A stretch of DNA of 64,000 nt from Raillietiella orientalis. Its lineage: Eukaryota. How positions within the stretch are numbered: position 1 is the first letter of the stretch; every line of letters starts with the position of its first letter. Under the pieces are notes generated by a model. That model saw only the letters and a program-made list of their open reading frames with translations. It did not search any database and was not told the DNA's origin. This document shows positions 1 through 61,599 of the stretch, piece by piece. The translations under genes were made by a program, and so were the position numbers. Location of the stretch: contig JAYWIR010000020.1 of the NCBI GenBank assembly GCA_036172245.1, positions 806,001 to 870,000 of the forward strand. The letters are read 5' to 3'.

Positions 1-547
1 GATTAGAATCACGGTATTATCAGTAGCAGTAATTACAATTAACATGCTGTGATTATTATAGCACTTGCAATTTGTGGTTACGATAGGGTTTTGAATAAGT
101 GTTTCTTATTTTATATGTAGTTTTCTCTATGAGGAAGAATTTGTACACAACCAGAAAATTGGCGAAGACAATTTTGAAAATAGATTAAATGAAAATATCA
201 TTACGAGACGTATTAGTAAAGTTTCGTTTATATTGGTAAGCATGTTCCACAATGCAAAGAATTATTTTGTGTTGGAGTGTTGGAGTTAAGTTTGCAATCA
301 TGCAAGTGTTGTGCGAAATTTCGTTAGCATCATGTGAACACAGTAATCTTCGAGAATTTGAAGTTATCCAATGTGAAATGAAGAATTTTTTCCCCAATTG
401 GACAGCAGCCGGACAGTATCGTATAGCCGGCATTCATTCAAGATTTGTTTGAACTCTATTAAGAATGGTAGTTTGCATAAGTGTGTAATTTTCTACATTT
501 TATATTTCTATGTGATTGTTTGGTACATTTCATATGCCATTGTTGAA

Positions 548-3500
548 ATGAAAAACATTTTAAATCTGGTGAAATGTTCACTTTCTTTAGTATTTTTGAT
601 AATGTTTATTGGTGGATTAGTGACTATGATGAAAGATTTGGGAAAGAATAGTTGTTTGATGACCTATATGTTTGAACAACCGCAATATATTGTAAGTATG
701 TGAGGATTTGAAATTTTGCTAATTATCATTGAGGTGTAGAAATAGCACTTTTTAGATTACCAATAAAACACAGGGGGAGCATTATTTGTTTCGAAAACAT
801 ACAGTGTTAATGATTAGAAGCAATGTTAAAAGTTATAAATTTCAATTCAAACATATAAAAATGATTCTTAATTTTGTTTAAAAGATTCGATTTAAGTTTT
901 TTCTTTGATATGTTTTTTTAAACCATATTTCGTGTGCATAGTATGGGTTGCCCACAGTGTCTCAACAAGATCCTGAAAGGATGTATTAAAAACCATTGTT
1001 TTTATATTAATAACATAGCTTAACATAATAACATGTTTTTAGTATCAATTAGTTTCAAGTATCAATTTTTTTTTCTGAAAATAAGGAAAACTGGATTTTA
1101 AGTGGTAAGTCACTGCAAAACATGTTTGTACTTGCTGAGTTGCAATGTGACAAATGATGTAGGTGATATTTGTATAGTGGCACAACTAGAACTTCTTAAT
1201 AAAATTGTAACATTTGGGTAACCTTCATCTGAATATTTATAATTAGAAGTCCTTGCACTGTATTCATTTTAGTAAGCTACAATCAGGTGTGCATAATGAT
1301 TAGGATGTATAGAGATTCATAGAATTTTGCTTCATTTTATGGTATTATCTGCTGTATTTTAAATTGAGTTAGTGGCCATTTTTCGTTTCAAATATTAAAA
1401 TAATAAGTGTCCTTCAATGGGTGGTTCAATTAAATTGGTTAGGAAGAAATTAAAGACATAAGTTTAACTGTGGAACAACAAAATGGAGTATAAGTATTGA
1501 TTTCGATTGAAATTAAGCAGAGCATTTGAGAGGAACAAAGATTGTTGTTGAGAAGATGGAAAAAAAATTTTGATACATTTTTTGTATCCAGAAACTATAA
1601 GTTCCCATTTGAACAATAGAAATCTTTTTGAGTCAGAGGCAAAAAGTTAAAGTTCTGTTAGTACTTTTTAGAAAATACAATGCTGTCTGATCATATAAGT
1701 CATAAATACAAATGATATAGTTGGATTTATGTATTCACTGACGTAAAAGACAACCAAGGGCCAAATTATTGACTCAGAAAAATATTTATGCAAATATGTT
1801 TGGTCTATTTGTCATATGGAAGTTTTGTATTCATAAATACTTTCATATTTAGGTTTTTGACGAAAAAATACCAATCACAATCGAAAAATTTCATTATTGA
1901 CTATGTTTTAAAATAATAAATAATTAGTGATGATGACAAAAGGCATGAAAGCTTGATTTCAAGTTCTGTCATTCCATGTTCTAATGATAGAGTACATTCA
2001 TGGGATTGCTTGCCTCATATTTAAGCAGTGCCATTATTTGGAAATGTCATTTGTTTGTTATGATTTGAAAAGTACGGAGCCTGTCGATAAAGTAAACAAA
2101 AATGCGGAATCTCTCGAGATTCGTATTCGCAAATCAATGTTTAGAAAGTATCCTCAAAGCTCATTAAGTATGTGGAAACTGTTTATTGTGATATCGCAAG
2201 AAAAAGGAGCCTGGAAAAGTGGAGTCAGAGAACTGTATTGTTTTGTTTATCATGAAGAGTAATTTATATTCATCCAAATAATCCAACACCAGCACTTCAA
2301 CAAGCAGAAGATGGAATTTTTTCCATGTCAATCGAGGTTATGCTACAAATACCCAAATTTTCATTCTATTTGAGATGTATCAAAAAAAATGTTTACATAA
2401 AGCATCTGTCTTGTGCTAAGCTACATTTTTATTGTCAATCTTATGTCTAATTGTGGTGCTATATTTACTATTATTGATATGGATCTCCAAAGTCTTGATC
2501 ATAAAGTTTGGTGATAAAGCAATTTATAGATTGGATGCCTGTTCATAATGGATGCACTATGTTGAATATCGTGCTAAGATTAACTTCAATGAGAAGCCTA
2601 GATTGCAACAGAGAGCATGTTGCATACATGTAAATTGACTTGAATGTGATAATCATAAAATGCTTCGTGGTCATTCTTACTTTTTAGGGTCACTTCTGAG
2701 AATGCTACATCTAATTATTTGTAGCGTTTCTTTTAAAATAAAAGTTTTTTATGGAATTTCTGAATTTGCATTTTTTTCATGTGCAGCTGCATATTTGTAG
2801 TTGATGAAAAATTCTCAAAGATGCTGATTTCATACTATATGTGTTTGGAGTTTTATAACTTAAATACTGATTAACTTTAATACTGATTAAAATCACTTTC
2901 TAAGTTTAGTTTTGTTCAGATAGTTTAGCAATATTTAGAATTTAATGGTTGAGTTGAGATAGCTTTTATTTTGGAAGAGGTCTTTTGTAATCAAATAAAT
3001 CTTTGAGATAGGCCACATGGGCAGTTTCCCTAGCATATTTTCAAGGATTTGCAATTTCATTACATATTTGTAAGGAGTTCAGTCATTACAACATTTTAGT
3101 TTTTAACAACATTTAGTTTTTCATTTGTTTTCTTAATCAATAACTTTGCCAAGTATTATTTTTCAAAAATGCATTGAAACAATGACACATGTCATTGCTC
3201 CATCAGTCAGCAGAACTACAACTCATTTTTAATAACTTTTTATTTGTTTTCATCGTGTGTTAGCATTTTTTGTTGTGTTAAATGTAGTAAATGCACATAG
3301 CTTTCAAAAAGCCTTTTCTTTCCAAAAAAATTTGAAAATTTTGTTGTCTTGCCCATTTTATTGGAATTACGATCAGAATTTGAGTATCAGTATTTTTTAA
3401 TGATTTTAAAAAATTGTTTCCCAATAGAGAAAGCATGAAATTAAAACTAGATTTTGTGATTATTTTGAAATCCAAACAAATTAGATTCCAACTCTTTAGG

Positions 3501-6500
3501 TTGTTATACAACCAATTTCTCCAGAGATTTTTAAACAACTGAAATTACTTATCAGAACTTGATTGCAATAGTTCATATACTTTAATGTTTATCCTTGGTT
3601 GTATTTTTGTAAATCAAAAAGACTTCAGAATTTTTTAGTTACCTTTGTATCTTTTTTGGATGTTTTTTTGTTTGTAGTCATAGTGTCTTCTTCTTATGAA
3701 AGAAGTCATATACGTCATTTTCCATATGAATTCAATCAACATCATGAATAATTAAGATTTTCAGTGAATGTATTGTATGCAAATTGCACAACAATTTCAG
3801 GTTGCACATTTTTGAATTCTTAATTTTCTAAACCTAACTGAAAGTAAAAAACCATAATTTACAACACTAATGTTGTTAATAGGACTTGTCTTCTTTTCCT
3901 TTTCATTTTCTTGCCACTGACATTGAATTTTTACAATTATCAATGCTTATTATGTGTGATTGCTCAGTAAAATCACAAGTTGATAATTCACCATAATATC
4001 TGGAATCCATATAACTGAGAATGCAAAAGCATGGTCCATTTCGAAATTGTATTACTTTTTAAATGAAACTATAAACCACATAGTCTTATTATTTGCATTC
4101 CTTTTTATGAACTTCATTGCAGCCAATTCGTTTGCCACAAGACCTCAAAGAACAGTACCCATCTTATTCATTGTTTCTTTATCATGAAGGAAATCATGCC
4201 AAATATATCAAGGAAAATAGACTTACAGGGATACCTGTGGTTTTTGTTCCAGGAAGTTCAGGATCTTATAAACAAGGTAGAGTTTGTTTGTCGCAAGACA
4301 TATTGTAGCTGAGTTATTAATATAAGCAGTCATGATTTTCAGAGAATTGGAACCATTTTAGATCAAGCTGTAACTGTTATTCTCAAATATATTCATTTCT
4401 TCTTTCATTGCTTCCATTATATTTTATGTTCACCAGACTTGCAACCAGAACCATGATAGAAAACTCCATCAAATACTTGGGCATTTTTTATGAAGGAAGG
4501 AAACAGAACTTAAAAGTTTTTTTGTGCTTTTTACTTCTATCTATTTGTGTCTCCTTATTTTGAATCAGATTTGTGGTAATCAAATTTGCCAGCATATCAA
4601 AAAAAAACAGAAAGATGGTAATATAGGATGCATACCATATTGATTGGTGAATTTGATTTTGAAATGTAAAGATTGCATCTAAAATCCTTTAACATTTTAG
4701 AGTTTACTTTTTAGTGTCGTTAACGAACTTGTCTTTGAGTTGTGTAAACTTTAAAGTAAATTTGCGCTAATGTGTAAATTCTTAAAATAAGTGTTTATTT
4801 TAATTGGAATTCTCCATCGAAATTTGTTTTTGAATTCCCCTAGCGTACAGTTAAAACCAAGGAATATTAACCAATGGAATATTAACATATGAAATGAATA
4901 CATAACATAGGATCTTGAATTTCAAAACTTTAATCATGCATTTATTGAGCAACAACGGGAATCTTTTTACAAATCCATATATCTTAGGGGCAAAAATACA
5001 ATCGAGTATCAGTGAACAAGCAACCAATTGAATTTGCAGAAGTAGCACTAAGTCTGTAAAATCAATTGTGTTTTTTAAAAGGAATTTATCAGGACATTGC
5101 GAAAGTGCATGCTAGATACATTTGCATATGTGCCACCCAGTTCAGGAAAGACAATTTTAAAAAGCAATTTCTTCTATTGCATGCTAGAAAAAATTTCATA
5201 AAGTTTTCTATCATGGTTCTGGTTGCAAAAAACAGTGCTAAAACGATTTTACAAGTTCGGAAGTATTAAATGAAAGTAAAATGTATGGCTCATCTCCGTA
5301 AAAAAAAGTGTGTGTACTTTTCTGTTAAGGAAAAATTTATGAACTGAATCATGTACATGTATTTTGTCCAATGCATAATAAAAAAAAATTCTTAATTTAC
5401 ATAGTGGTAAATAGTTTTTCAGACAAGTGAATTTGTGAAAAACAGAACATGTTACATGGTGTTAAGGGAAGACTTTTTGATTTCTTTGCCCCCCAATTTT
5501 TTCAAGAATGGGGTTGTTTGATAATTACAAATTTAGCTTATTACAAACATACTTTACCAAGCTGGAATGAAGTGAGAAGGGGCAGCTAAATTAATGCTTA
5601 ATTGAAGGAATGAGAAATGAAATTGTGAATTTGAATAAAGATGAAAATAGATTGTCAACTTCATAGTGATTGCAGTTAAAAATCATAATAAACCGTAAAT
5701 CCATGAGGATATCTCATCATCATGAAAATTCATTTGAATAACTGAATTATGCAAATTTCCTGATGAACTTAAATTTACAGTTACTTTTAAATGTCATAAT
5801 TATTTCCAAATCAGTTGGTTTCACAGAAGTAGTTCTGTAGGGGAAAATCTTTGACATCAATTGATCTTTCGCAACATACGCATTCAAGACAGTTATCATC
5901 GCCTTCTTAAATGCATCTTTAAAATGTTTAAGTATTGTCAGTTAAACACGTTTCATTCTTAATTGTTTATTATTTCACACACCATGTTTTGGAGTCTTTT
6001 CATGGTTTTTTGTTTAAGTTATATCTGCTTAGAATTTAGAATGAATGAAAATTACAATATCGTTTTCCTTGCACACATGGCGTTTATTTCTCAGTAAAAG
6101 TAAAAAACTGCATGTTAGATGAGAAAGATTGAATGTGCACAATTTTTATTTAGTTTTTCATTTCTGCCTACTAAACTAGTATTATCGGATTAATTGTTGG
6201 ATGTACAATTTCATAATTTTAATAGTGTTTCAGTTCACCACAAAAGTATTGTAATTGTTTTAAAGTATTAACATCTTTAATTTCCCAGTGCGTTCAATTG
6301 GATCAGTGGCCCTTCGTAAAGCAATGGGAAATCGGTTAGGCATTCACTTCGATTTCTTCACACTAAACTTCAATGACGAAATGTCAGCGTTTTATGGAGG
6401 AAAATTACTTGCCCAATCCGCATATTTTACACAGGTCATGCAAGTGATTCAGAATTTATACGAGGTACCCAAAGCAATGGTAGTAATTGGCCATTCTATG

Positions 6501-9218
6501 GTATGTAACTTATCCCAACTGTTTCATTGCCCCAATCCCTTTGCCAGGGTGGTTTGGTAATATGTGCCTCGTTATATTCTTTAAATGTTGAAAAGCATCG
6601 AGTAAGCATCGTGATTTTATTAGCTGCTCCAGTTGTGTCACCTCCTGTGATATTTGATTTCATCACGATGACTTTTTTGTTGAAAGTTCATCAATTATTA
6701 CATGAACACAGAGATGTTATGTTTCTGTCAATAAGTGGTGGCCATCAGGATGTTCTTATTCGTTCTGATCTTGCTTTGTTTCCACGAAGTAACCATACTT
6801 TATCAATATTGGTCAGTAAATACGTTGTAGATGTTTTTATATGTACAAACAGTCTGCATCTGTTGTTGACTTGTGGTCGGACGTGGATCATCAGTGCATT
6901 TTATGGTGCAAACAACTTGTTATAGCTCTTGTTAGAGCCTTATTTGATTGTGTAGATTCACAGAAAATGCTATTGAAGAATTCAACTAGCAAATATCTGC
7001 ATGTGTTCTCATATCACTTACTAAAGGTACGAATTTCAATGAAAACATTCATGTAATAGTAGAAATGTTTAGAGGATAAGTGGCAAAGGCATGGTTAATC
7101 ATCCATCCAGAACTCATTTATTTCCCAATATTAAGAGAATAGAAATTTCTCAGCGACGGTATACTTATTTTCATTCCTTCAGGGATGATCCTGTTTATCT
7201 TTTGCTTCCCATTTATCATGATCCACATTACGAACAGTTGTATGTGACTGTTGAGAATGTGGATCATGATGATTGGTTCATGTCATGCAATGCCAGTTAC
7301 GATGAATCTTCAGGTCCCAAGTGGTATGTTGTAAATAATGCTTCAGTATATCTGATCCAAGTGCAGTCAGCAGGTTATTGATCTCTCAGACAAAGTATTT
7401 CTTTTACCTTCAACAAAGCAGAAGACACAAGCAGCTATAGTTGAATCATCTGTGTTATTGCAATTGAAAATGACGCACGTAGTGATTTTCCTTTTTTCTT
7501 ACAAAGAGGTATTATACTGTTTAATTATTAAAGACTTTCTAATATGAAGATCTTGCATAGATATGGGTTCACATTGATTTTCATGGTCGATCTGATCGTC
7601 AACTGATGTTTGCAAGTAGCTTTTGGTTCCATTTATTGAAAGAGACAACCCTTTTGAATGCTCAAGCATATGAGGGAGCCCTTTTTTACAACATATCATT
7701 TATCGCCATTAATACTGTTTGGAAAACATTTAAAATCACTGCTAATGTAACTAAATGTCAGCAGAAAGAGAGTTTTGCTCGTTTGTTTTATTCAGATGAA
7801 GATCACTATGGATTTTCGGTTTTCAGGTGTGTATTCTGGCTGTATGGCAGTGATGAATTTGTTGTTTGGTCTTATATGTTGCTAGGATGAATGATTTGAA
7901 TAGCATGGTAGTTCAGTCATTGATACCTCAACAGTGGATGAATGGCAGTGTTTTTATGCACCTGTATCTTCATCCATCTTGCATGTATGATTTTCGGTAA
8001 GTAATGCATATTCTGATGGGTCACGTATTTGTGGCAGGGTATCATCTTCCCTTGAGCATAGCTGGGGGCAAGTCATTCGCTTTTATGGCCCTCTTCTTCC
8101 AAGCCATCTGGTTGCAGCTTGCCTTGCTGATCTAGCTACTCAGCTGCAGTTGCTGAATTCAGATAGTTGTTCAGAGGGTCATAAAACTGCTTTTTGCCTG
8201 TCATCTTTAAAACTTTTGCTTTCAGCTGGTGTTTTGAAGCATATATTTTGGTAAGTAAAAAAAGATGGTACATATCATGAATCATATCCTAGTTACTGGA
8301 CATGGGAATGGGCACCTAGTCCTGACTTCATTGATATTATATTGCATCTCATTAGTTGTGCTTTAATTTCATTATTCTACGCATTCAGTGGCCTTTTGGC
8401 ATATGGTCTTGTTCTTGCAATGCGTATGCCTTTGATCAGGTATAACACACAAGTGGGGACTGGTCTTATCTTGTTAAGGTTTATTATGGATGCATTTCCC
8501 TTGCCACTGTCTGCAGTTCAGCAGACTCTTTCAGAAATGTTGTGTAGTTCCCAAGCATTGGCAGTTTTGCTGATAGCCATAGCTCTATTCACTTGTGGCC
8601 AGGTAGCCATCATTTTAGGAACTGTAATCAGCATGTCTTTGGTATGACATTATAGTTATGTACTTGTTTCTAAAATTATATTTTGAAGTTACTTCCTTTA
8701 TATGAAGACTATTGGCAAACTACTATGAATGAATGGCCAGTAAGATGGATCCTGCAAGCAACAAGTAATTGCACTATATGTCATCAGGTCCATTTTCAGC
8801 TGAGTTTGACAGTTTTATGGATTTTGTTGACGGCACTGGGTATGCCCACTCTTTTAGTATGGTACAAGTAGGTCATGCTGTTATTATTTACAATACTGAT
8901 TTAATTGGAGATCAAAAGTACCACTTCATCCTGATTATAGTTTGATTGTTGCTGTATGTTTGTGTGTAAGTGCCAGCATTCTTTGGACTTCATATGTACC
9001 TGTGCGAAATTCTTCCAGGTCAGAAAGCTTGTTACTTCAATATTAAAGTGCTTTTCAGTTACAAGGTTGTTTCCTGGATAGTATACTGTATTGCAGTGGT
9101 TGCATTGTTGACCAGCCACTTGGTTTATATTCTGAATTATGTTGTAGTCGTTGTAATGCTAATACTAGCATTTCATCAATGGGTATTGACCTATTGGGGG
9201 GAGAGAGAAAGTCACTGA
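548..9218 (+). CDS. PGAP1: GPI inositol-deacylase (PGAP1/Bst1), ~895 aa. Exons 548-691, 4123-4276, 6289-6500, 6548-6811, 6853-7026, 7073-7323, 7367-7508, 7561-7826, 7886-7996, 8038-8250, 8293-8439, 8479-8641, 8689-8867, 8911-9018, 9059-9218
   Basis: N-terminal TM then SCLMTYMFEQPQY; GIPVVFVPGSSGSYKQVRSIGS; lipase motif GHSM|GG split by a 47-nt intron; DHQCILWCKQLV; GQVIRFYG; multi-TM C-terminus. All introns are GT-AG with consistent phases; exon lengths sum to 2688 nt (896 codons). Confidence 0.93.
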
Positions 9219-9285
9219 ACAAGATATTTTCTCTTTGTATGTAACTGGTTCCTTGTTTCCAGGGTATGTTGAAAGATTCAGAGTT

Positions 9286-10476
9286 ATGGCCTCCAGCATG
9301 AAGCAAATAGCTTTAACTTGTAATGGCCATACTCGGCCTGTGGTGCACTTAGCATTTAGTCAACTTTCAAAATATGGTTATTTCTTGATCTCGGCTTGCA
9401 AAGGTAAGGCAGAACAGGTGAATGCAGGAAACCCATTGTTTCAGTTAGATGGCAAACCAATGTTGCGCCAAGGAGATACAGGAGACTGGATTGGTACATT
9501 TGAAGGTCATAAAGGAGCTGTTTGGGGTGTGGCTTTAAATGCCGATGCTACTCTGGCAGCAACTGGTGCAGCTGATTTCAATGCTAAAGTAAATTTTCAA
9601 TTAGGTTGGTTCTTTCTTTTGATGAATTTATAGGTATGGGATGCTGTTACCGGAGAAGAACGACTTTCTTTTACACATAATCATATTGTGAAGTCAGTTG
9701 ACTTTTCTCCCGATGGCATTCACCTTCTCACAGGAAGCAATGAAAAACTGCTGCGTCTTTACGACTTGGAAAGTCAGCACAGTGGTAAGCAGATACAGTT
9801 ATGAGGATGATTAGTATTGCTTTAGAACCATTTAAGTTCTTTGGACACACTGGTGCTATCCGACATGTGTTATTTCTTCAAGATGGCAAGAAAATAGTTA
9901 GCATTGCAGAGGATAAAAGCCTGCGTCTTTGGGACACATCTACTCAGTGTGAAATTGGGCATATTTTGCTTCCAGCAACTGCTAATAATGTTGAGCTATC
10001 AGCTGATGGTTCCTTGCTAACAGTTGCACATGGGAACTGTGTCAGTTTCTGGAAAGTGCCAGAGTAGGTTGGTAAGAACAGTGGAATATGTAAAGATTAT
10101 GGCAGGTTAATGCAGGTGAGCGAAGTAACTGTAGCCACAAAAGTGAACAGTGCATCCTTGCATCCCTCAGGCAATGTGTTTGTTTGTGGAGGAGATGATT
10201 TGAAAATGTATAAATATGAATTTGTGACAGGAGTGGAATTAGGTAGAATGTCTTTATCATTTCTTGGTGTTTCTATGTTCTGTAGATTCTTTTAAGGGTC
10301 ATTTTGGACCGATCCATTGTGTCCGATTTTCTCCTGATGGAGAGCTATATGCCTCTGGTAGCGAGGATGGTACTCTGCGCCTGTGGCAAACTGAAGTAGG
10401 CAAGACATATGGATTATGGAAAGGTATTGACAACAATACCAAGCAGTCTCAACCTGGAGATACAGTCAACAATTGA
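9286..10476 (+). CDS. STRAP: Serine-threonine kinase receptor-associated protein (STRAP/unrip, WD40), ~324 aa. Exons 9286-9403, 9449-9588, 9634-9784, 9826-10063, 10106-10242, 10286-10476
   Basis: Diagnostic stretches [53 protein letters not shown] and [44 protein letters not shown]; five GT-AG introns of 41-45 nt restore the frame. Confidence 0.96.
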
Positions 10477-10480
10477 TCAG

Positions 10481-10486
10481 TTTATT
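10481..10486 (-). terminator. Candidate poly(A) signal (AATAAA) of FARSB
   Basis: tttatt on the + strand reads AATAAA on the - strand, about 35 nt past the FARSB stop codon. Confidence 0.55.
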
Positions 10487-10520
10487 ACATTTTAAATTAA
10501 GGAGAAGTTCAACAACCATT

Positions 10521-12254
10521 TTAGTAGCAGTTCTCAAAAAATTCCATATTTATTTCAAATGCAGCACAAGCATGATTCAAATCAAATGCTAAGATAACTT
10601 CAGGGTGTAACACACCCATGTAGCCTAGCAACAAGTCATTTATTGTGATGGCTGCACAGCATCCAGGGAAATACATGTTTTGATCAGAAGATTTCAGCTG
10701 ATAACCATGTGTGCCTCCATAATTAACTTTCAACACTTTCATTATGTGATCTAGTATCCCATGTATAATTTCAAAACCAGGAGTTTTGTTATAATTCACA
10801 ACTGCTAAGTGACGTTCATTTTTTGCCCCCGTTTCAGTTTGTGCATCTTTCAGTACAACATCAGCAATTTCAAAAAGGCGTAAAGGCAAAGCTAAGTTCT
10901 TGTTGTAAGCTATAGTATGCAGCAAACCTGGTAGTAGAGTAGTGCGAGTAACTTGGAAATCAGCAGTTTTGGGATTGGCAATATGCACTGCACATACATC
11001 AGTAGTTTTTTTCAACTTAACAGTCAAATCAGAGAAAGAGCACAGCAAAAAGGACAATGCTTCAGTGAAGCCTGACTGTGCCAGCTCACATCTCAATTGA
11101 TTAGTTAATTTGTTAAGCCCAAACTGTTGTGCCATTGCATTAGTTTTTGGAAGCACTCTAGGTATATGTGTATATCCATAACCAATAGCTAAGTCCTCAT
11201 AAACATCACAGGCATGTAATACATCATGCCTTGTTGGAGGCACAACAGCTGTCATCTGAGAGGTGCATTTTGATTTTACTTGATATCCCATTTGGTGCAA
11301 AATATCTATTGCTTGAGATTCACTCAAACAGATCCCTAGAATTTTGTTTGCTTTACATACATCTATCTCCTTTTCATGATAGCTTAACTGAGGCCATACT
11401 GATGTTTGGCCATTAACAGAATGCACCTTGACAGGCTCCACTGTATATGGTTGTTGACAGTATCTACTGAACATACAAACCAGTGTATCAAGCACAATGC
11501 TTGCTTTGTGTTTATCAGTTGCTGTGCATTCAATGAACACGTTTTTCGTTCTTAGCGTAATTTTCGAGTGATTTCCATTTATAACTGGAGGAAGGGACAA
11601 AACAACCTGTTTTCTGTCATAAATCACAGGATAGTTCTTTTTGCCACGCAAAAGGTGAAGATACTGTTTTAAGTGACTATCCTTCGAGTACAGTTGCATC
11701 AGTTCATCAGCACTAAATTCACGAGATTCGTTTAGGGGACGAAACTTAATATCTGAGGGTGGCTGTGCATCATAAGTAAAAGGCTGTTCCAACGTATCAA
11801 AATCATGAGTTCCTATGGCTACAAGTGACCGCTTTTTGCATAGGTTTTGATGCAGTTTTTCCTGCAGATCGATGAAACTGGCATAGCTTTCTTCCGAGAA
11901 TGATATGTCACGGAGAAGTGCTGCAACAACATATGGTCGTACTTGTGCTGTGTTTGGCTTAACAAAAATTTCCACATACGATTTTGGATTTGTCAGGTGA
12001 TATAGGGGCATTTTTTCTTTCTTCAAATATACAGACAAAGCTTGACATATTCCCTCGAGGCATAACAAATCGTATCGGTTTGCAGGTACTTCGATTTTGT
12101 ACAGAATTTGTTGCTTGCCACTCTTATCAGCTTCGTCAATAATTCCATCCAGTTCAATTCCAAATGCAAAACACAATTCCTCGAACTCTTCATCAACCAA
12201 CGTGGTTCCTAGGTTATTGAGAAGGAGATCTTTCCTTATTGCAACGGTAGGCAT
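10521..12254 (-). CDS. FARSB: Phenylalanine--tRNA ligase beta subunit, cytoplasmic, 577 aa, single coding exon
   Basis: Uninterrupted ORF beginning MPTV, with YKIEVPANRYDLLCLEG, FIDLQEKLHQNLCKKRSLVAIGTHD, VLSLPPVINGNHSKIT, PPTRHDVLHACD, RTTLLPGLL and GVLHPEV. Confidence 0.97.
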   Translation of the reverse strand: MPTVAIRKDLLLNNLGTTLVDEEFEELCFAFGIELDGIIDEADKSGKQQILYKIEVPANRYDLLCLEGICQALSVYLKKEKMPLYHLTNPKSYVEIFVKPNTAQVRPYVVAALLRDISFSEESYASFIDLQEKLHQNLCKKRSLVAIGTHDFDTLEQPFTYDAQPPSDIKFRPLNESREFSADELMQLYSKDSHLKQYLHLLRGKKNYPVIYDRKQVVLSLPPVINGNHSKITLRTKNVFIECTATDKHKASIVLDTLVCMFSRYCQQPYTVEPVKVHSVNGQTSVWPQLSYHEKEIDVCKANKILGICLSESQAIDILHQMGYQVKSKCTSQMTAVVPPTRHDVLHACDVYEDLAIGYGYTHIPRVLPKTNAMAQQFGLNKLTNQLRCELAQSGFTEALSFLLCSFSDLTVKLKKTTDVCAVHIANPKTADFQVTRTTLLPGLLHTIAYNKNLALPLRLFEIADVVLKDAQTETGAKNERHLAVVNYNKTPGFEIIHGILDHIMKVLKVNYGGTHGYQLKSSDQNMYFPGCCAAITINDLLLGYMGVLHPEVILAFDLNHACAAFEINMEFFENCY

Positions 12255-12879
12255 ATCGAGATGAAACCGTTATTAGAGATTTCACACACTTTGTGGAGTT
12301 TGAAAATCTCAAGACTGATCTCTACTGATCTTTCCGGGAATTACACACACTTTTTCATGAATTTCTAGGTAATACGCCAGGCTTTCGGAATGTTCTATTG
12401 AAATAATACAGGCATCATTTAACTGCCAACGAATTATGGATGTGCGTATGCAAAATTGACAGACTTCCGCACACGGAAACGTTGCCATGCGCGCAGCGAA
12501 AACGTTCACCGGAGCGAAAACGTCGCCGTCTCCATGGCACGCGCTGGCATCAACAAAATCAATGTTACTGATTGAGGCTCATAACTTTGAATTCGAAACT
12601 TTCCGTTTTGTTCAGTGTGTCCAAGTTCCTAACAGTGTAACAGATTTTAAAAAAAACATTGAATAACAAGTGTGCTGCACGAAATAAATTTTATGCATAC
12701 ATAAGCCGATGCTCTCCTAACAACGTTGGATAGGAAATCAGAATTCAGGAACTTAGATGGCTTCAAATGATCGTTAAACACAAGTTGATAGATAAGAACC
12801 GTACTTAAGTGTTCGCTTCAATTCACTAATGGTGGATAATAGCAGCAGAATTACAAACTGCGCAAGGTCACTGACAATG

Positions 12880-13020: not shown

Positions 13021-14627
13021 ATTCGTATTGCCTGGCAATGGTTTTGCAGTCTTTTATAGTGACCGCAAAGCCGGATTGAAGCATCCGATCCACGCACAAC
13101 GTGCTATCGAATTCGACGGTAAAGACTTCTATACTTCTATGACCCCAGAAAAGACAGTCTGGAAGACTAGTTTATGATAAATTCCAGACGTCTTGACACT
13201 ATACAGTCATAGGGTAATTAAGAGACAAAAGAAGGACAAGTTTACTCATGAAAAGGAGGCGTCCGAGCGAAAAGTGTACACGAATTTGCATAAAAGCTAC
13301 AGAATCTCCATTACTTCAAGTATTTAGCGCTTACAAACGTAAACACTTACACATGAACAATTCTCATAAGAACCGCCATAAAAATTTGAACGATACAAGT
13401 GATTTACCTTTTGTCAAAGGTGTTTACTCGGTGTCCTTCGGCAGTTCAACACGAAAAATGATAAAGTCGGTTAATGTGTACATAGAAAGTCCCATTCTAA
13501 AAATTTTTTAGTTATTAACATGAAATATCTTTTTCGTGCTTAGAAAGAATACAGGGAACAAGTACAGTTTTGAAGTAACCAGAATAGTAACTACACACCA
13601 AGCAACAACACTTGCATGTTAAACGCAATCTTTACGTCTTTACTTCAAGTGCACATTTCAATGCATCCAGATTTCGCTCGTTTTCACACCCATATTTATG
13701 CATATGTATACAGCATGTTTATACATGTGAATTATATGTATATATATATGCACGCACACACATGTGTAAGTATTATTGAATACCGTAAGTGTAATAGGTA
13801 AATTGGTGTCTCTTCAGGCAAAAAAAATTCGTTACTCGATGAAGATAGCAATTTTTATCAAGTGAGGGCATTTCTTTGGTCATTCCTTTGATTTGCTTTC
13901 TTGCTCATTTATCTCTTGCACGCAATTTACAATTTTCTAAGGTGAAAGCTTTACTCATTTGTTCAGGTATTGTTGTTTATAGATTCATTGATATCAATGC
14001 GCCTATGAGAGCAACATAATCTAAAACAGCAAAGCAAGGATAGAATTTTCATGAATGTTAGAAGGTTGTGCACAAAAGGAATCAAGTTTCTGTACCATGT
14101 TTTCGTGCAAATAGCATCTGTGTGTTCAGTTTAGGAAATCCCATCTTTACATACGCATAAGTAGAAAAATAATGATGGATACGCATAATTAAAAAAAAAA
14201 AATGTCAGCATTCACTGAGCACTAAAATAATTTTCCAATCCCCCCGCACTGACACGGAAATGTCAAAGTCCAGATATGTTTAGGCAGAAAATGGAACCTA
14301 ATAAATCATATAGGTGTTTTACTGCACACAAAGAATTGCAAGGCTCAAGACTTATGCCATTCTAACTTAATTAAACATAATAATTCAGAATTTTTAAAAT
14401 ATCCCATTATTGAAGATTATAGAAAGAAATGATTGTCCAAAATTATTTATATTAAATATAAATTACAGATCGTCAGCATTTCATTAATAAATATGCAAAA
14501 ATTAAAACATATACAAAGCCACTTTTTTTTAATCTCTTCATTTCTCTTTTTTCTATTTTTATTTATGTGTTTTATGCCTTTCTTTTGTAAAAAGATCGGA
14601 TAAAAACATATCACGAATGCACCAGGG

Positions 14628-17600
14628 TCAGTTGAGATCCCTGTCTTCCAAGTACTTATATTCAAAAGTAAACCCATCCTTTTTACGTTGACTCCATTTT
14701 TCAAAATCAAAGTAAATGTAAGTACCAAGTTCAAATTCATCAGTAATAGTCTTAGGTTCTTCATGCCTTTGAAACCACATCATGTACTTGGTGTGGAACC
14801 TCCAACTTTGTTTCTTGAGTGCACGTGCAGCTAAATACTGAGCCCTGCTACCCTCCATATAATAAAAGATGAAAAACAATGTTTCTGTGGAAAGTCGCTG
14901 GAAAAATTCCAGTGAGTCTGAATGAGAAAGTGGAACCTGGAACAAGGAAAGTCAGTAAGATTCATTACCATATAGAAATCATTACCTGAGGGTAATAAGA
15001 TGGAGTGGAGCATGGATTGCGTGGCAAATAGTGCCGAACTTTCTCCGAGTCTGAAGGATGGGGCATATGGGATGATGCATGTTCCAACATTTGTAATTGA
15101 AACTGCTGTTTTTTGGTCAATGGCCAAGGCCCTAAAGGGGATACACCCAAAACTGGTGGAATAAATGCTTCAGATTTCAGTGTTGGGCTGTTAGAAGTCA
15201 CTAAAATAAAGTAAATGATAAGACCATAAGAACAAACTGACTAATTAACCTACCTCGACTGGTACCCAAAGAGAGCTCTCTATCAGTGGACAATAAAGTG
15301 AGTGGCGTTGGTTCTAACATTGGGCATTTTGGACTAAGGGAGGGCATTGGATCAACTCTGCTACCTAAAGGAGAACTGTTTGCAATTGTTGCTGAATTAG
15401 GACCATCAGGTAAAGCAACAAGTGCAGAAGGAGATGCATCAGTGGGAGGAAGAACTGGCAGTACTTCCCTATAACTGGAAATAGGTGAAAAGCATACACC
15501 GTTACTATCATCACAAGCCACAGTAGAGTCTGCAAAGACAACTCAGATACAGTTTTCATTTGGCAAACAAACCTGCACTATTCTGTGTGGACAAAAGATG
15601 AAGATTTACTGGAGGAGGAGGGGAAGGAGAGAGACAGTTGTGAGATATCCCTGATGATGATGAACAATTATTAGGAGTACACTGACACGTGGACCCTGGC
15701 ACCAACTTGACTGGTGATGGGGCAGTTGATTTGGGTGCTGCTGGGGCAGAACTGTTGGGATAAGAATTGTATAACGAACTGGGACAGGAGAGTGACTCTA
15801 AATTATTGGCTTCTTCTCTATGTATTTTCTGCTTATCATCACAAGCTTCATTGGAATGATTACTGAGGCTTGGAGTGCAGACAGGAGAACTGCCAGAAGG
15901 ACTGGATGTGGGAGTAGAACCAGGGGTGATGAGTTCACCAGCAGACTCACTCCCCTGACTTACGGTAGGGGGCTACATAAAATGTAGTGAATAAATGCGT
16001 TTTGTTTAGTGTACCTCAAATGCTGTGTGGTTTAGTTCTTCAAATGGGATTTCGTCATACAAAAACTCATTTTCTTCAAAGTCAGTTTCCTGTGAGTACT
16101 CAATATAATATTCCACATCTTCCTTAATTTTCTTGATCTAAATGTAACAGTACAGATAATGTAGACTATCACAATCAATCACAGTTCCCTCACCTGATCA
16201 GCTTCTACACTCATGTTATCCAGCATACGTAGAAGGGTCTCCAGCATACGAATATGATGCTGATGTCGTTCTATAAGGTACTTAAGCTGATCCACTCGAT
16301 CCTGTCTTTCTTTGTCAACTTTTTTCTTCTTCACTCCTGCCAAGATACTCTCAATCTCGCTCTCAAAGTGGTCAATCTGAGGATGCATCCCAGCTGGCAG
16401 CATCTCAGGGAGATATGCCCATTAACCTGCACATTTAAAGAGTCTATGGAGTATGTCAGCCAATGGCTGATTTCATCACGCTCCTTCTGAGCAGGATCCA
16501 ACTTCTGGGCAGCTCCAAGACCTTCTTTTGAGTATGCTTTAGTTTTGGTTTCCCTCTCCACTACTTTGAATCTTTCCATTTGCTAAAACACAGAAATGTA
16601 AGCAAATGCTGTAAAATACTAGATATGAAACACAATTACACACAGGAATCACAGAATAGGAAATAGCACTTGATGTTTAAACTCACTGTTTCGATTAATT
16701 TTCTGGTCTCAAGAAGGATACTTTTATCTTTGATTTCCCCTGAAGCAATCCAGGATTTAATTTGATCTCTCAATCTCTGCAGTTTCTTGATTTCCTTTTT
16801 GAGATCAGCTTCATACTTCTCCTTCTGATTGCTGTTGGTTGCATTATGGACTTTCATCCAAATATCTTCAAAGGTTTCAACTCCTTCGGAAACTTTTTTC
16901 AAGCATCTATCAATTTCCCCTAAAGTGCATTAATTTTTATTTTATTATCAGGTAACCATCTGGATTGTAATTAATATAATTTCAAATTATGAGTGCTGTG
17001 TCACTATACAAAACCATAGAAGCATGAATCTAGTGAATTCCAACAAAACCTGAACAGAATGGCAATCTCTATCATAAAGTAATGCTGGTACATATCTATG
17101 CATTAACTTAAGTGCAACAAAGAAAAATGGGCACTGACATTGATATTCTTTATATATGTTACAGCAATGATTTCTCCTACTTTCACGTATACTGTTGCTT
17201 TGGAATTTTAGATATTAATAATTATTAAATACATAATCTCTCCCTTTAAACATTTAACAATTAAGTGGAAAACAGTACACTTAGAAAAACATAGAATTCG
17301 AAAAAATTGATTCCTGAACTTTTTAAAATCAAAAACATCAACTAATGATCAATTATTTGTTATCTGGAATTTGGTCATCATTCTGCATTGATGGGAAAGT
17401 ACTATAAAATTTCATTTCTCAACAAACTTAGAAGCAGTACTTCACATTATGGAAAGCTTCACTTGCAGTAGATAACATGAAAACTTTGGTCAATGAAATA
17501 TTTTTTTTAAAAGAAACTCTTTTCAAACTAACTAAGATTTTTTTTTTTTTAACATGTTCGGAATCTGAATCCTTTGTCTCAAATTTTTAACTCCATGGAC

Positions 17601-18967
17601 TTCTCATGAAACTAAAACTGAAATATGAAGTTGATATTCTATACAGGAAAATTAGTATGATTTCTACTCCTTTTTTTTTTTTGTTAACTAGTTTACTTTT
17701 TAGACTCTCTTTCATTCACATTTTTCAACCATTCACACCAAAGTTTCATGGTGTTTTGAAAATCAATTTTTTTACTGACTTTAATTTATAGAATGTTCTT
17801 GATTCACATGAACATTTTTTGCCATTAGAATTGACACAACAATCCTTCATTTCACACATATATGCAATAGACAAATGGATGAGATCAAAAAGTAATAAAC
17901 ATGCATAAAGATGCAGTCTGCCTTAAGTAGCTCATTTTGAAAATTACTTGCATGCAGTACTAACAATAGTTTAGATTTTATGAAGTTAACTAAATAACCT
18001 ACAGAGAAAGTATGTCTGAGGTTAATATGATCAAATCTAAATCAAAGTAGTAGTAGATGTGAAAATATCTATTGATTTTCAGTGGAAATCAACGTAATGC
18101 ATTAATCAAATATGATAACTCATTGAAGGTGGTGCACAAAACATGCTCCAATAATCTCTATTTTGGGAGCAGCAATAACTGTGTACCACACCTAGTTAAG
18201 TAATTGAATATAATTGATTTTAGCATTTCAATATGTAAAATAATGCTTTCACATTCTTATTGAATTAGCCTTTAAGGTGTATGCCAATTTTTTTTTGGCT
18301 GCAATACTTTATCTTAATACATTATGAGTCTAAAAAATCTCTGTAAGATCAAAACCACCCTTAGCAGCATGAAGTAAAACTAAAGCAAGAATCCAACCCA
18401 AGTTTCTAGAGTTCAATAATATTCTGATTAATCATTATTGATTTCGATCACAACGCAATGATTAGCTATTTTCCACTAACTAACCTAAAAATTAATGCTT
18501 TTATAATGAAAAACTTTTTGTGTGCGCCGTACTGAAACGAATTTGTGGACTATTCAAAGAAGCCGCTGAGGCTAATTCGAATACTAAATTGTTTGATTTC
18601 TTCATTTCAAGGTGCAATCTTCGCTTTATAATGGTTTACAATGTTTCAGATCTCGGGAACAATAAGTGCATGAGAGTAATGATTAATCGTATATTTACAC
18701 GGAGCATATGTGGATCATACGAAAAGGGCAAAATGTTCACGTTTCTCGGACATGCTCAATATTAAAATTCCCAAATACGAAATATCTCGTTCAGGACTTT
18801 AACAAGGAGCCCGTGAATGTTAACAACTAATTCGCATTTTCTTTTTTTTTTTGTAAGGATAAGAGTAGCTGACCAAACAGGTACACCTAGGAATATCGCA
18901 TGCATATATTTCTGACTAGTTTGATAAATCTAGTCATATTACCTTGTAACTTCCTCGAAGCTGCCAT
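14628..18967 (-). CDS. CNOT3: CCR4-NOT transcription complex subunit 3 (Not3). First coding exon 18943-18967, ~2-kb intron, then exons from 16919 down to the stop at 14628
   Basis: [29 protein letters not shown]...[46 protein letters not shown], Ser/Pro-rich linker, C-terminal NOT box ([41 protein letters not shown]...[14 protein letters not shown]). Confidence 0.96.
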
Positions 18968-30300: not shown

Positions 30301-31211
30301 CTTGCAGAGCATGCTTGGGGCAGGAAACTTTGAAACTGTTCACGCTCATTGGTGTGACAGCTATAACTGATTTAAAACACCCACGTTCCATGACTTTTGC
30401 CATGTATACTGAATTCTCTGACTGATTGAGAAATTGCACTTTCAAGACCATATCCATCTTGATAGTGGCATTTTCATAAGCAAATGTGAATCCAGAATTT
30501 CTTAGTTTCTTCCAGTATGAAAAAACTCATCAGAAGGGTACTTAAGACATTCTCAAATAAACAACGCAAACTTCCCATTGCGCTGAACTGTTTATATAAG
30601 ATCACTTTTTTTTTGACTATAGAACTCTGTGACTACACGATTTTGTCGTTAACGTTCAAAAGTTCGGAATTGAATGCACAATTTTCACTTTGTTTTGCAA
30701 ATCACAATGATGAACGTTCGATTCTAGAAGCTTTCATTTAACGTGAAATACGGACTGTTTTCTTCAACAATTTTTTTGCAAATCTTTCTTTAATAATATG
30801 ACAAAAAAATTACTTAATAATTCAAACCTTATATTTTCTTTTCATATTCCAGAATGTTGATAAACAATTTAATTCAGTATAGATAATTACTATATCAGTT
30901 TTTTTTTTTTTAATCAATCAACAATTTTCTGGCTGCCTGATTCATTCAATCAGACATCACCATGTATCACATTCATAGACATATAAATGTATGTAAAAGA
31001 AAATATATCTCATTTAAATACAACTCTTTAAAATATGCTCCTCCCTAAAAGTTAGGAATTATAGGGAGGAACAAACAGGCAGATATATCAAAATTCACAA
31101 TTTCTTGGACCCTTAATTTTAGTTAATTTAGTAAGCATAAACAAAAGGAACAGGAATGGAAAAGACTCAAGATGAAAATTCTTCTACAATCAATGAAATC
31201 TGGTCACTGAG

Positions 31212-34200
31212 CTAAGCATGCATCTGTTGCTTGGATATCCATATTTGCACCAAGTAGGCAAAGACGATTCCTAATACCATAACTCCAAATAGAATAATTG
31301 CAGCCCACTGCTGATCATTCAGCTCATGATGGACTTTGATCTACAAAACGTTAGGAACAAATGCAAGTATTTATATTATACAAATACCTGCAAAGAAGAC
31401 ACTGTGTGTTTCTCAGGAAGCTCTTCTGTTGTTGCTTCTACAGAAGGTGTTGTAAAAAAACATGTTGGAGTGTAAGCACCAGAAATACTGGAGTTAAGGG
31501 AATCAGGAAAATGCCTCACAGGACACGCACGTACTCCATATTCAGTCCCTGGTTCCAAACCAGTGATTGTGAATTGCTGCTCATTTCCTTCATAAATCTG
31601 TAAGATTTACATCCGTCCATGTAACTCTAATACTAATTTTGAGCATACAGGCCAGAATTCGCCATCTTGACCTCGCTTCAGACTGAGAATGTAAGAGATG
31701 AAATCTCCACCAAGAGGCCGACTTTCATTCCAAGACACAAGGCATTCTGTCTGTTGTAGACTGCAGACTTGGGGAGCTATGAAAGATACTTTGAAAAATG
31801 AGAACTATCCAGACAACACCTTTTAGAGATTGAGGAGGAGCTCTAGATGTAGTGAAAGCATATTGAGGGGAGAAATCTCCATCTCCCATCTCATTGGAAG
31901 CACGGATACAAAACTTATAAGCTGTCATCTCTTGTAGACGCATTACTTTGTAAGACAGAGCATTTCCTTGGTATATAACGGAATACCTAAAAAAAACATG
32001 CATAAGGAAAACGTGAAATCAACTTGACATCACAAAGACTCACCCTTTGCTTTTTGGATTTTCCATTTGCAGCGTATACCTAGTTTGATCTGTGTTTCTA
32101 CCTTCTCCCCATTTTAATCGAAGACAATTGTGGCTACAACTGACACACTCCAATCTTGGAGGTGCAGGTGGCAATGCCTTAGTCATGACCTTATGAATCA
32201 CAGAATAGGGGCCTGGACCTATATGATTAACTGCTTGGACACGAAAACGATATTGGCACTCTGGAGATAGGTCATCAACAGCGAGTTCATTCTGTGGGGC
32301 TAAAACATGGAGAACCTTATCATTCATTTCTACATTATATGAAATAATGGGAGAGCCATGGTCCTTGGGAGGGTTCCAACTGATTTGCAGAGTTGTGGCT
32401 GAAGCTATGCACTTTATATGTGTGGGTGAAGCAGGAACACTTGGGGATGTCCCACATGAGACACAAGAAGAGTATTTTCCGGGACCAGCTGCATTACTGG
32501 CCCTTACACGAAAAAAATATAAAGTGGAGGGTAAAAGATTAGTGGCATTATAAGAGTGTTCTAGGCCCACATATATAGGAGAAAATTTTGCATCTTTTCT
32601 GTCCATTTGTCTACTTGTCATTTCTTCTGCATTCTAGAAATACTTTCACTAAAAATATGCACGTAAGCTTGCATGCTACCTGTGCCCATTCCAACTGATA
32701 TTCTGTGATGGGAGATCCATTACAACATGGTTCTTCCCAGGTCAGACACATACTTAAGCTAGACACAGATTCTACTAATAAATTGGCAACAGGCTCGGGA
32801 GGAGCTGCTGCAGTGCATACTTCCAAAGGTTCCGACCACATTCCTGGCTAAAACGATGAAATACAATCAACGATAGCTTCAGAATCTTACAACGACGTAC
32901 CCCAACTTTGTTTAGTGCTCGTACTTGGAATTTGTAAGATCTCCCAGGTTTCAATCCAGATATCACACATTCTGGTTCGCTGCTGTGATACAAGAGATTC
33001 TGGTCATCAGCAAGTACCACTTCAAATCCTGTCAAAGCAGCCCCACCATCAAAACTAGGGCTACCTATGAAAGAATTAATCTGTCCAAGCTCATCAGTGA
33101 TGAAACCTTACTCCAACAAAGACCGACGTCTGTAGCATTGGGACTTCCTTTAAGACGCAAATTATAACAAGCGCTGGGATATATGGCAGCAGTAGTCACA
33201 ACCAAAGGGTCAGAAAATGTTGAGCAGCCTGCAGGACCAATGCAAGCCACTTGGCAACGATATGTTGTTCCTGGAGTCAAATGGCTGCAAACAAAGTCCA
33301 TAGCAACTCCTTCATAGACTTTCTCATAGCCTATTACGTCATACATAATACAATGAATATTACAGTGAACACTCACCTGAGCCATGATCCACTTCCAAAA
33401 CATAGGCACTAACTGGTGTCCCTCCATCATCACATGGAGGTTCCCACATAATGCCAAAACTGTGAGGATGAATTCTACCTTTTACTGAAAGCTTTGAAGG
33501 GGGCTGTGGCTTTGCAGGAGGGGTACAGTAAGTAATACAAGGTGACCAAGGCGAGGAACCTTCTTCATTGGTGGCACAAAGCTACAGCTTGTTTGTTGAT
33601 AATACTGCAATCCTCAAGACTTACCCGGAATTTATATTCGCTATTTCTGACCAAATTATTGCAAGTATATTGGGAACAAGGACCATTGTATACATTTAAA
33701 AAACCATGCCCTGTACGTTCATCATTCATCTGAAGAATATAATCATTGGTACTTGGGCACTGATCCCAAGTCAAAACCAGATAATCCACCCCCTGACTTT
33801 CCAATTTTGGAGACAGTGGTGTGGGAGGAATGCTTCCTGCTGTTGCATATATTACACACTCGCTAAAGGGACTACATTTTAAAATAGCAACAACTCTTCA
33901 TGTTTTTCTTGCCTGGAACCAATGTCATTAGCTGCGGATATACGAAATCGATAGCATGTGGAAGGAGACAATTTAGTAACTTTGAACTGCTTTCCAGATC
34001 CTTCATAAAGCAGATTGAAATCCCCTTCTGGACAATTTGAAAACTGTAACTGATAATTGGTAATCTTAAGTCCGTTACTATTGGGAGTGATCCACCTGCA
34101 AAGTAAGAAAATAAAAGACACGTAGAGGGTCAGCTTCCAAGACCACAGTTACCAACTTGAGCAAAAGACTGGTTTTGGTGCGGCTGAGCAATTTAGGAGG

Positions 34201-45549: not shown

Positions 45550-46130
45550 CCAGAGAGAGTACGCTTGACGAGTGATTGCAAGAGTTCCCTATTTTCTGAT
45601 GCCGCCCCTTTTGAATTACGAATCGCAAGAAGCAATCTCGCTTCGACGGGAGCGCCTCCATTCTCCTCATCAGGAGACTTCCTCGACCACGGCGTTTCAA
45701 ACTCCACCCCAAAAAGGTGAGCGAGGAGCGGTGTACTCTTCTTCCTCAAGAATGAAGAAAATCTCATGGAACAGCAGAGAGAGGAAAGATCCGTCAAGGT
45801 CTGTAGCACGGGAAAGTTTCAAAATCGCCAGAGTCTGGTCGTGGATCAGGAGGAGACCACTTTTGACACTTGTAAGTCAGTTGTACAGAAGTACAATGAG
45901 GCAATCAGCAAGGTTGGTCAGTCGGCAACGCACAGGAGCTCAAGGCATTTCTTGAATCCCCTAAAAGCAAGGAAGAATGTTTCGAAATAAATTGCTTGTG
46001 AGATGAATAGAAACAGGATAAAAACAGGATCGCACTTCCTGTGGCGCCGCACTAGTAGGTTTAGCGGAAGTTGGTACACTTTCCGATCAGCTATCAGAAC
46101 TCTGAGACTACTGGAGACCAACTGAGCTCG
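45550..46130 (+). mobile_element. Decayed RTE-clade LINE, 3' end of RT
   Basis: SRMKKISWNSRE resembles the RTE C-terminal RRxLxISW motif; followed by VVQKYNEAISKVG; frameshifted. Confidence 0.45.
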
Positions 46131-46147
46131 GCAGCTCAAGACTTCTC

Positions 46148-46295
46148 AAAAATTCAAGACTTCTCCTGACGGCTGTCTACACAAAAACGTACAAAAAAGT
46201 GAAGTTTACATTAGAAAGTAAAGTTTTTTTATTTTAAGCCACTTGCTTAGCTACTGTTTCAGAAGCAAAAGGAAAGCAATAAGGTATTAAAAAGG
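46148..46295 (-). repeat. Right arm of the identical 148-bp inverted repeat
   Basis: Exact reverse complement of 43222-43369. Confidence 0.95.
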
Positions 46296-46399
46296 TCTCT
46301 AGTACCCACTCTGCCACCTCGAAGGCAGCTCCTGGACTTCTTTGTTTCTCGAATAAAAAAAAAAAAAGTGCCATGGAGACAGTAAATGAGAAAATCCCT

Positions 46400-61500: not shown

Positions 61501-61599
61501 TTGTGCTTACAGTAGTTTTCCTTTTTGATTTCACTCGACTGTTAGATCTGTATCATTTCGATTTCGTAATTTTTCAGCACTTATGAACAGACAGAGAGA

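Follow-up and report, generated by a model that had tools for sequence, protein, structure and literature searches.

How is a gene expressed when its start codon lies only 67 nucleotides (nt) behind the stop codon of its neighbour? This question is raised by the PGAP1 and STRAP genes in a 64,000-nt stretch of Raillietiella orientalis DNA (contig JAYWIR010000020.1, positions 806,001 to 870,000 of the forward strand), referred to below as the window. Both genes lie on the + strand, head to tail, with the PGAP1 stop codon (TGA) at 9216-9218 and the STRAP ATG at 9286-9288. The geometry of the locus, the splice signals in the spacer and STRAP's lack of a CpG island of promoter type can be read directly from the DNA. 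The missing island, the tight spacing and an unusually strong acceptor together favour transcription of STRAP from upstream, and co-transcription with PGAP1, taking all mechanisms together, appears rather probable. The specific form preferred here is an operon resolved by spliced-leader trans-splicing, a tentative choice to which we give somewhat less than an even chance. These judgements weigh the evidence together with a modest prior that this animal lineage trans-splices.

In such an operon, a CpG-island promoter upstream of PGAP1 would drive a single PGAP1-STRAP transcription unit, and RNA polymerase II would continue past the PGAP1 stop codon and the 67-nt spacer into STRAP. A spliced leader would then be trans-spliced onto one of the acceptors in the spacer (9262 or 9281), yielding a separate capped STRAP mRNA, while the PGAP1 mRNA would be ended at or near that acceptor without a canonical AAUAAA, as in the Ciona operons that have no intercistronic DNA.

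Identity of the two genes

The identities of PGAP1 and STRAP stand, as judged from sequence similarity. The PGAP1 model, curated by eye like the other intron-containing gene models, runs from an ATG at 548 to a lone terminal stop at 9218 and includes a GHSMGG lipase motif of the GxSxG serine type. Two long introns (692-4122 and 4277-6288) are followed by 12 short ones of 40-52 nt, the final one at 9019-9058. Pfam was run on 367 (148 + 149 + 70) of the 443 listed open reading frames (ORFs) of at least 55 amino acids in the window; the other 76, shorter and mostly from the G+C-rich part, were left out. Matches to PF07819 were found on four PGAP1 ORFs and jointly covered profile positions 2-232 of 233, and PF24660 (PGAP1 beta-sandwich) was matched in part by one ORF. 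Exon 1 was picked from the ORF at 377-703, which we take to resemble the PGAP1 N-terminus.

The introns of STRAP are 45, 45, 41, 42 and 43 nt long, and WD40 matches were found on four of its exon ORFs. The predicted protein is 62-68% identical, over nearly its full length, to relatives named 'serine-threonine kinase receptor-associated protein'. In 101 of the 120 listed relatives, residue index 8 or 9 marks the beginning of the motif LTCxGHTRP. Here its index is 9 when counted from the ATG at 9286 and 5 from the ATG at 9298, and the STRAP start is therefore probably 9286. In a tree of 22 sequences (this one plus 21 relatives picked from the 120 listed), STRAP formed a long branch with weak support (82/43).

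Splice signals in the spacer

The window overall is not compact, since the identified genes elsewhere in it are kilobases (kb) apart and PGAP1 itself contains introns of 3.4 and 2.0 kb; the tightness of the PGAP1-STRAP pair is thus local. The earlier note on this DNA had placed the two genes 67 nt apart and had described two splice-like elements between them, an acceptor AG at 9261-9262 with TAAC and a pyrimidine tract upstream, and a 45-nt GT-AG segment of local intron size. On re-reading, these coordinates all agree. In order, the spacer consists of ACAAGATATTTTCTCTTT, GTATGT, AAC, TGG, TTCCTTGTTTCC, AG, G, GTATGT, TGAAAGATTC, AG and AGTT. The first GTATGT begins at 9237 and a TTCAG ends at 9281, so that the GT and the AG span 45 nt, while the AG at 9262 ends 44 nt behind the PGAP1 stop. 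A second donor-like sequence, GGTATGT, with its GT at 9264 and thus one base past the 9262 AG, had been absent from the earlier note; its score (Table 1) is high, and no sensible partner acceptor was found for it by eye.

Ranked by pyrimidine content, 9262 comes first among the acceptor-like sites of the region. Eleven of its 12 positions from -14 to -3 are pyrimidines, and at least 11 of 12 is a level reached by 71 of the 7575 AGs in the window and by none of the 24 curated acceptors. The density of such AGs is 0.55 per kb per strand, with about 0.04 expected by chance in 67 nt; between 500 and 11500, 9262 is one of five on the + strand. No comparable acceptor was seen by eye before the ATGs of PGAP1, FARSB or CNOT3, and among 31 sites listed elsewhere in the window with an acceptor followed by an ATG, none was convincing.

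Weight matrices for donors and acceptors were derived from the 24 curated introns, 14 of them from PGAP1, five from STRAP and five from CNOT3 (only five CNOT3 introns were usable, the middle of that model not being resolved). In leave-one-out scoring, these real introns ranged from 2.9 to 9.9 for donors and from -2.5 to 8.0 for acceptors. The donor at 9237 scored 6.6, which is in the top 2.6% of the 6504 GTs. It cannot be paired with the AG at 9262, only 26 nt away. With the AG at 9281 (score 3.1) it delimits a segment that has GT-AG ends, both scores in the real range, and a length of 45 nt, within the local class of 40-56 nt. Pairs as good as this one, at 40-52 nt, numbered nine in 79 kb-strand of unannotated DNA (0.114 per kb-strand), with one more antisense to the PGAP1-STRAP block. 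About 0.003 would be expected by chance wholly within the spacer, a figure whose true value is somewhat higher because the thresholds were set after the site had been seen. Branch-like motifs were seen by eye 7-12 nt before the AG in the STRAP introns, and a TTGAAAG lies 7-9 nt before the AG of the candidate. On this sequence evidence, the segment 9237-9281 probably represents a genuine intron of the local type.

A local hairpin ends just upstream of this donor. It folds at -11.5 kcal/mol (z = -2.23), and five of 200 shuffled sequences folded as well. The wider fold of the whole spacer (9195-9300) was not unusual (z = -0.26).

CpG content at the gene starts

The CpG observed/expected ratio in the 500 nt before the ATG was 0.91 for PGAP1, 1.29 for FARSB, 0.70 for CNOT3 and 0.18 for STRAP. 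STRAP is therefore the sole one of the four placeable gene starts without a CpG-rich 5′ region, which lends indirect support to its being fed from upstream. For the block as a whole, the closest promoter-type region upstream is the CpG island at the 5′ end of PGAP1. Beyond it, CpG stays depleted without a break between about 500 and 11500 and does not recover at the STRAP start; in the core of this block (7801-11400), the observed/expected ratios were 0.21 for CpG, 1.28 for TpG and 1.67 for CpA. Small CpG-richer patches occur in the long PGAP1 introns (about 1900-2200, 4600-4800 and 5800-6400). Over the window as a whole (1-64000) CpG forms a mosaic, with ratios of 0.0-0.5 over PGAP1-STRAP-FARSB (500-11500), CNOT3 (14500-18500) and a fibronectin-III gene (31000-35500), about 0.7-1.3 in the rest, and islands at three gene starts. 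Gene bodies methylated in the germline, with promoters left unmethylated, are known to leave blocks depleted in CpG and enriched in TpG and CpA together with CpG-rich starts, and the pattern seen in the window suggests gene-body methylation.

The claim that STRAP is served from upstream and possesses no ordinary promoter of its own finds partial support. The difference between 0.18 and 0.70-1.29 speaks for it indirectly, while a CpG-poor promoter embedded in PGAP1 would escape such a comparison.

One way to feed STRAP from upstream would be a non-coding exon, located in the PGAP1 CpG island or in a CpG-richer patch of a long PGAP1 intron, that is cis-spliced past all of PGAP1 onto the 9262 acceptor; in that case one promoter region would yield the two genes as alternative products. 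A long-range acceptor would require a strong pyrimidine tract of this sort, STRAP lacks a promoter island, and the small intronic patches do exist. However, 9262 would have to be chosen over 14 intervening PGAP1 acceptors, the leader would retain an ATG at 9266, and the intron-like segment 9237-9281 would be left unexplained. Splicing of PGAP1 exon 1 itself (donor 692) onto 9263 or 9282 would give a short out-of-frame product, as judged by reading the frames. We consider this arrangement quite improbable, and allow a similarly small chance for any other explanation not described here.

The STRAP leader

The acceptors and starts available to STRAP give different leaders. Use of the 9281 acceptor leaves just AGTT ahead of the STRAP ATG. 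Removal of 9237-9281 from a longer transcript leaves 22 nt between stop and ATG, with a leader that ends in CTCTTT joined to AGTT-ATG. When transcription starts at 9183-9236 and the 45-nt intron is removed, the leader has no upstream ATGs, whereas the ATGs at 9139, 9155 and 9180, in the last PGAP1 exon, become upstream ATGs for any start before 9183. That exon is the only site for an internal STRAP start close to the spacer.

These observations bear on the possibility that STRAP is an independent gene, whose start site lies within the last PGAP1 exon or the 18-nt stub of its 3′-untranslated region (3′-UTR) and for which 9237-9281 is a 5′-UTR intron. The most plausible position would be 9183-9236, and the mature leader would end in CUCUUU joined to AGUU-AUG. 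PGAP1 transcripts would end non-canonically or run into STRAP, and the 9262 acceptor and 9264 donor would be chance features. This explanation makes use of the statistically strongest signal in the spacer, the intron-like segment (donor 6.6, acceptor 3.1, about 0.003 by chance), whose removal deletes the ATG at 9266 and leaves a clean leader; the implied distance from branch site to AG, 7-9 nt by eye, agrees with that of the STRAP introns. It needs no special machinery and could apply in any metazoan, and non-canonical 3′ ends seem normal at this locus, STRAP itself lacking a canonical poly(A) signal. On the other hand, the STRAP 5′ end has no CpG-rich island while all three of the other placeable gene starts have one, no clear initiator or TATA was seen by eye in 9183-9236, and if the TATA-like TTTATATTC at about 9126 were used, the leader would contain the ATG at 9180. 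Moreover, an acceptor with 11 of 12 pyrimidines (about 0.04) and a second strong donor (top 1.1%) would have to be left to chance. We regard an embedded start as unlikely on balance, with roughly one chance in four in its favour.

Possible readthrough fusions and bicistronic translation

A fusion of PGAP1 to STRAP by readthrough had been considered excluded. For the two configurations then considered this held, since a spacer of 67 or of 22 nt is in both cases 3k+1. As a general statement it failed: if the donor at 9019 is joined to the acceptor at 9281, skipping the last PGAP1 exon, the frame is kept and the product is PGAP1 (minus 53 amino acids)-Arg-Val-STRAP. The STRAP frame is open upstream as far as 9190. 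A fusion through a 52-nt intron at 9211-9262 would also be in frame; it was rejected, its donor scoring -0.1, below all 24 real donors, with 48% of GTs as good.

Co-transcription might therefore proceed with no leader, through a bicistronic mRNA with 22 nt from stop to start, in which STRAP is translated by termination-reinitiation or internal entry, or through an alternatively spliced in-frame fusion (9019 to 9281). Such co-transcription would fit the missing promoter island, the intron-like spacer segment and the lack of any canonical poly(A) signal separating the two genes, and the 9019-to-9281 join is indeed in frame. That join, however, has a one in three chance of being in frame by accident. 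When proteins of 178-2000 amino acids were searched, no fused STRAP was found among the 120 best relatives listed, all being 179-371 amino acids long, and we know of no rationale for fusing a membrane deacylase to a cytosolic WD40 protein, which speaks against the fusion variant. As to the bicistronic form, eukaryotic ribosomes reinitiate very inefficiently behind an ORF of 898 codons, while STRAP is broadly needed. Co-transcription of this kind would seem improbable, a little less so than the far-upstream exon.

Poly(A) signals

As the earlier note had stated, a scan found no AATAAA or ATTAAA in the PGAP1-STRAP spacer. Neither hexamer occurs anywhere on the + strand between 9043 and 12682 (3.6 kb). 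The lack of a signal behind PGAP1 is therefore nothing peculiar to the spacer and tells little, and STRAP must rely on a 3′ end signal that is not canonical. The closest A-rich hexamer past the STRAP stop is a TTTAAA at 10491. FARSB and CNOT3 do have a canonical poly(A) signal. The absent signal after PGAP1 is compatible with operons of the Ciona type, but does not discriminate.

Comparison with known systems

Ciona has mosaic gene-body CpG methylation and Oikopleura has short introns, of about 45 nt; both are counted here as likenesses. In Ciona intestinalis (PMC1488885, Satou et al. 2006), operons are without intercistronic DNA, the upstream poly(A) site abutting the downstream acceptor; of the gene pairs whose downstream gene is trans-spliced, 9.2% were closer than 100 nt, compared with less than 1.1% of other pairs, and 16 of 18 operons lack an AATAAA within 40 nt. 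Other studies give operon cut-offs of at most 60 bp for Oikopleura (PMC7986045) and less than 250 bp for a chaetognath, in which 18% of genes are in operons (PMC12460157). Set against these values, the distance of 67 nt (44 nt to AG 9262) was judged to lie within the Ciona (<100), Oikopleura (≤60) and chaetognath (<250) cut-offs. The locus resembles the Ciona operons in being a same-strand pair less than 100 nt apart, with an acceptor right after a very short upstream 3′-UTR and no upstream AATAAA; that the upstream gene need not be trans-spliced there is also counted as a likeness. With the Oikopleura dioica and chaetognath operons it shares a short intercistronic distance and genes of the housekeeping type. 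Unlike in Ciona, the spacer contains two strong donor-like sites, a 45-nt candidate cis-intron and, in the 9262 leader, an upstream ATG. Further, the leader is known in Ciona, while here only acceptor-like sites are read from the DNA.

In the Ur element of C. elegans, a hairpin and then a 5′-splice-site-like sequence precede the acceptor, and here too a hairpin and then a donor-like sequence lie before an acceptor. The motif TAYYTT is frequent in AT-rich DNA; a TATTTT at 9225-9230 fits it, with 32 nt from there to AG 9262 and 51 nt to AG 9281, and is a likeness to nematode operons of the SL2 type. Nematode intercistronic distances, counted from a canonical poly(A) site, come to about 100-130 nt, unlike here. 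In nematodes (PMC7668243), the Ur motif TAYYTT is expected about 50 bp before the trans-splice site. None of the 120 listed FARSB relatives is a nematode sequence, and the CpG pattern also argues against a nematode.

In Drosophila dicistronic genes and in the overlapping tandem genes that compact genomes contain, same-strand ORFs lie tens of bases apart, the start or the translation of the downstream gene being tied to the upstream 3′ end. The arrangement of two same-strand ORFs tens of bases apart is the same here. Unlike in the Drosophila dicistronics, leaky scanning is impossible and reinitiation unlikely because the upstream ORF has 898 codons.

Evidence weighing against a spliced-leader operon

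Several observations count against an operon resolved by trans-splicing. By the acceptor matrix, 9262 scores 3.7, a value reached by 17.7% of the 7575 AGs and not above background; 22% of AGs score as high as 9281. This matrix is uninformative and cannot rank either site over background because the local short introns have weak acceptors. A leader starting at 9263, as produced by the 9262 acceptor, includes the out-of-frame ATG at 9266, whose ORF extends past the beginning of STRAP to a TGA that overlaps the second STRAP Met codon (ATGA at 9298-9301). The resemblance of 9237-9281 to a true local intron points to cis-splicing through the spacer, which is at odds with trans-splicing at 9281. In C. 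elegans, a trans-spliced gene becomes cis-spliced once a donor is added to it, and with a good donor 45 nt upstream the 9281 acceptor should be captured in cis. Between them, the well-formed cis intron and the 9266 ATG speak for splicing in cis across the spacer and against 9262 being used productively. Since STRAP, too, has no canonical poly(A) signal, the argument from the missing signal is a weak one. At gathering thresholds, Rfam finds only a U4 small nuclear RNA (snRNA) in the window, lineage-specific leaders having no Rfam model. Finally, one study describes gene-body methylation as absent in trans-splicing nematodes, chaetognaths and ctenophores (PMC12460157), and the strong gene-body CpG depletion of the window is unlike the chaetognath condition given there. 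The CpG pattern likewise speaks against most nematodes, flatworms, rotifers and Oikopleura, and would be compatible with ascidian tunicates or hydrozoans.

A search for the gene pair in other genomes had little to say on this matter. No PGAP1 was found by tblastn, with the model as query, in any of 28 metagenome STRAP loci; the best STRAP relative there was 49% identical, and the loci do not count against conservation of the PGAP1-STRAP pair because their STRAP relatives are too distant.

Neighbouring genes and other features of the window

The features described are collected in Table 1. The stop codons of STRAP and FARSB are 44 nt apart, and because the FARSB AATAAA lies in this gap, the FARSB cleavage site should fall in the last STRAP exon and the two mRNAs should overlap tail to tail. 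The absence of introns from FARSB, compared with five in the 1.2 kb of STRAP, raises the possibility that FARSB is a retrocopy. The best FARSB matches are 50-54% identical and come from many phyla (120 listed). In an alignment with 15 named animals, from sponges to amphioxus, FARSB was 52-56% identical to them, while they were 58-84% identical among themselves; by these comparisons the organism is a long-branch metazoan without close kin among the sampled sequences. The region upstream of FARSB (12400-12560, - strand) is CpG-rich with a repeated CGTTTTCGCT motif. Two elements upstream of FARSB, GCGCATGG and CGGAAGT, are presumed to resemble NRF1 and ETS sites.

Two blocks, 46500-52000 and 55500-60000, have 51-66% G+C in a window that otherwise has 27-45%, with CpG near expectation. 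The scanned ORFs of these blocks gave no Pfam match; their translations look non-coding and are rich in R, P, G, A and S. No tandem repeats were found in the window, nor direct or inverted repeats in 44000-62000, which spans both blocks.

Table 1. Positions of the features described, numbered from the first nucleotide of the window
Feature	Position	Strand	Remarks
CpG-rich island at PGAP1 5′ end	1-500	.	Observed/expected about 1.0
PGAP1 (GPI inositol-deacylase) coding region	548-9218	+	15 exons, 898 amino acids, curated model
Core of CpG-depleted block	7800-11400	.	PGAP1 3′ half, all of STRAP, FARSB 3′ part
Last PGAP1 coding exon	9059-9218	+	53 amino acids, hydrophobic
Local hairpin, purine run GAGAGAGAAAG paired with UUUUCUCUUU	9202-9236	+	Spans PGAP1 stop, ends just before 9237 donor
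PGAP1-STRAP spacer	9219-9285	+	67 nt, stop to ATG (sequence reading)
Candidate 45-nt spliceosomal intron, GTATGT...TTGAAAGATTCAG	9237-9281	+	Local short-intron class
TAAC in spacer	9242-9245	+	Sequence reading
Pyrimidine tract TTCCTTGTTTCC (9249-9260) and AG (9261-9262)	9249-9262	+	24 nt before STRAP ATG
Second donor-like GTATGT	9264-9269	+	Score 7.6, top 1.1% of all GTs
Upstream ATG and 11-codon out-of-frame upstream ORF	9266-9301	+	Only in leaders starting at 9263
STRAP coding region	9286-10476	+	6 exons, 324 amino acids
STRAP exons	9286-9403, 9449-9588, 9634-9784, 9826-10063, 10106-10242, 10286-10476	+	Gene model
FARSB AATAAA	10486-10481	-	In gap between STRAP and FARSB stops
FARSB (phenylalanine-tRNA ligase beta subunit)	12254-10521	-	577 amino acids, single exon, convergent with STRAP
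CNOT3	ATG 18966, stop 14628	-	Gene model
Fibronectin-III repeat gene	about 31.7-34.6 kb	-	Pfam
U4 spliceosomal snRNA gene	54856-54990	+	Rfam, 72.1 bits, full length

Implications

The succession of hairpin, donor, strong acceptor, second donor and weak acceptor might constitute a splice-signal 'switch', an idea to which we assign only a slight chance. One precursor, made from the PGAP1 promoter, could then give either a cis-spliced bicistronic or fusion form or a trans-spliced or otherwise released STRAP mRNA, again a long shot. That this should occur in an animal lineage in which operons are not known and gene-body DNA methylation is retained is equally speculative. Such a spacer would differ from the empty or U-rich spacers of known operons.

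If STRAP starts in the last PGAP1 exon, the pair would be ordinary overlapping tandem genes, of value for annotation only. A true operon would place polycistronic transcription in a metazoan lineage without a close relative in the sequence collections searched. Because this lineage shows the methylation signature, the case would also bear on the proposed link between trans-splicing and lost gene-body methylation. The dense mix of donors and acceptors within 67 nt would then offer a compact natural case of competition between cis- and trans-splicing.

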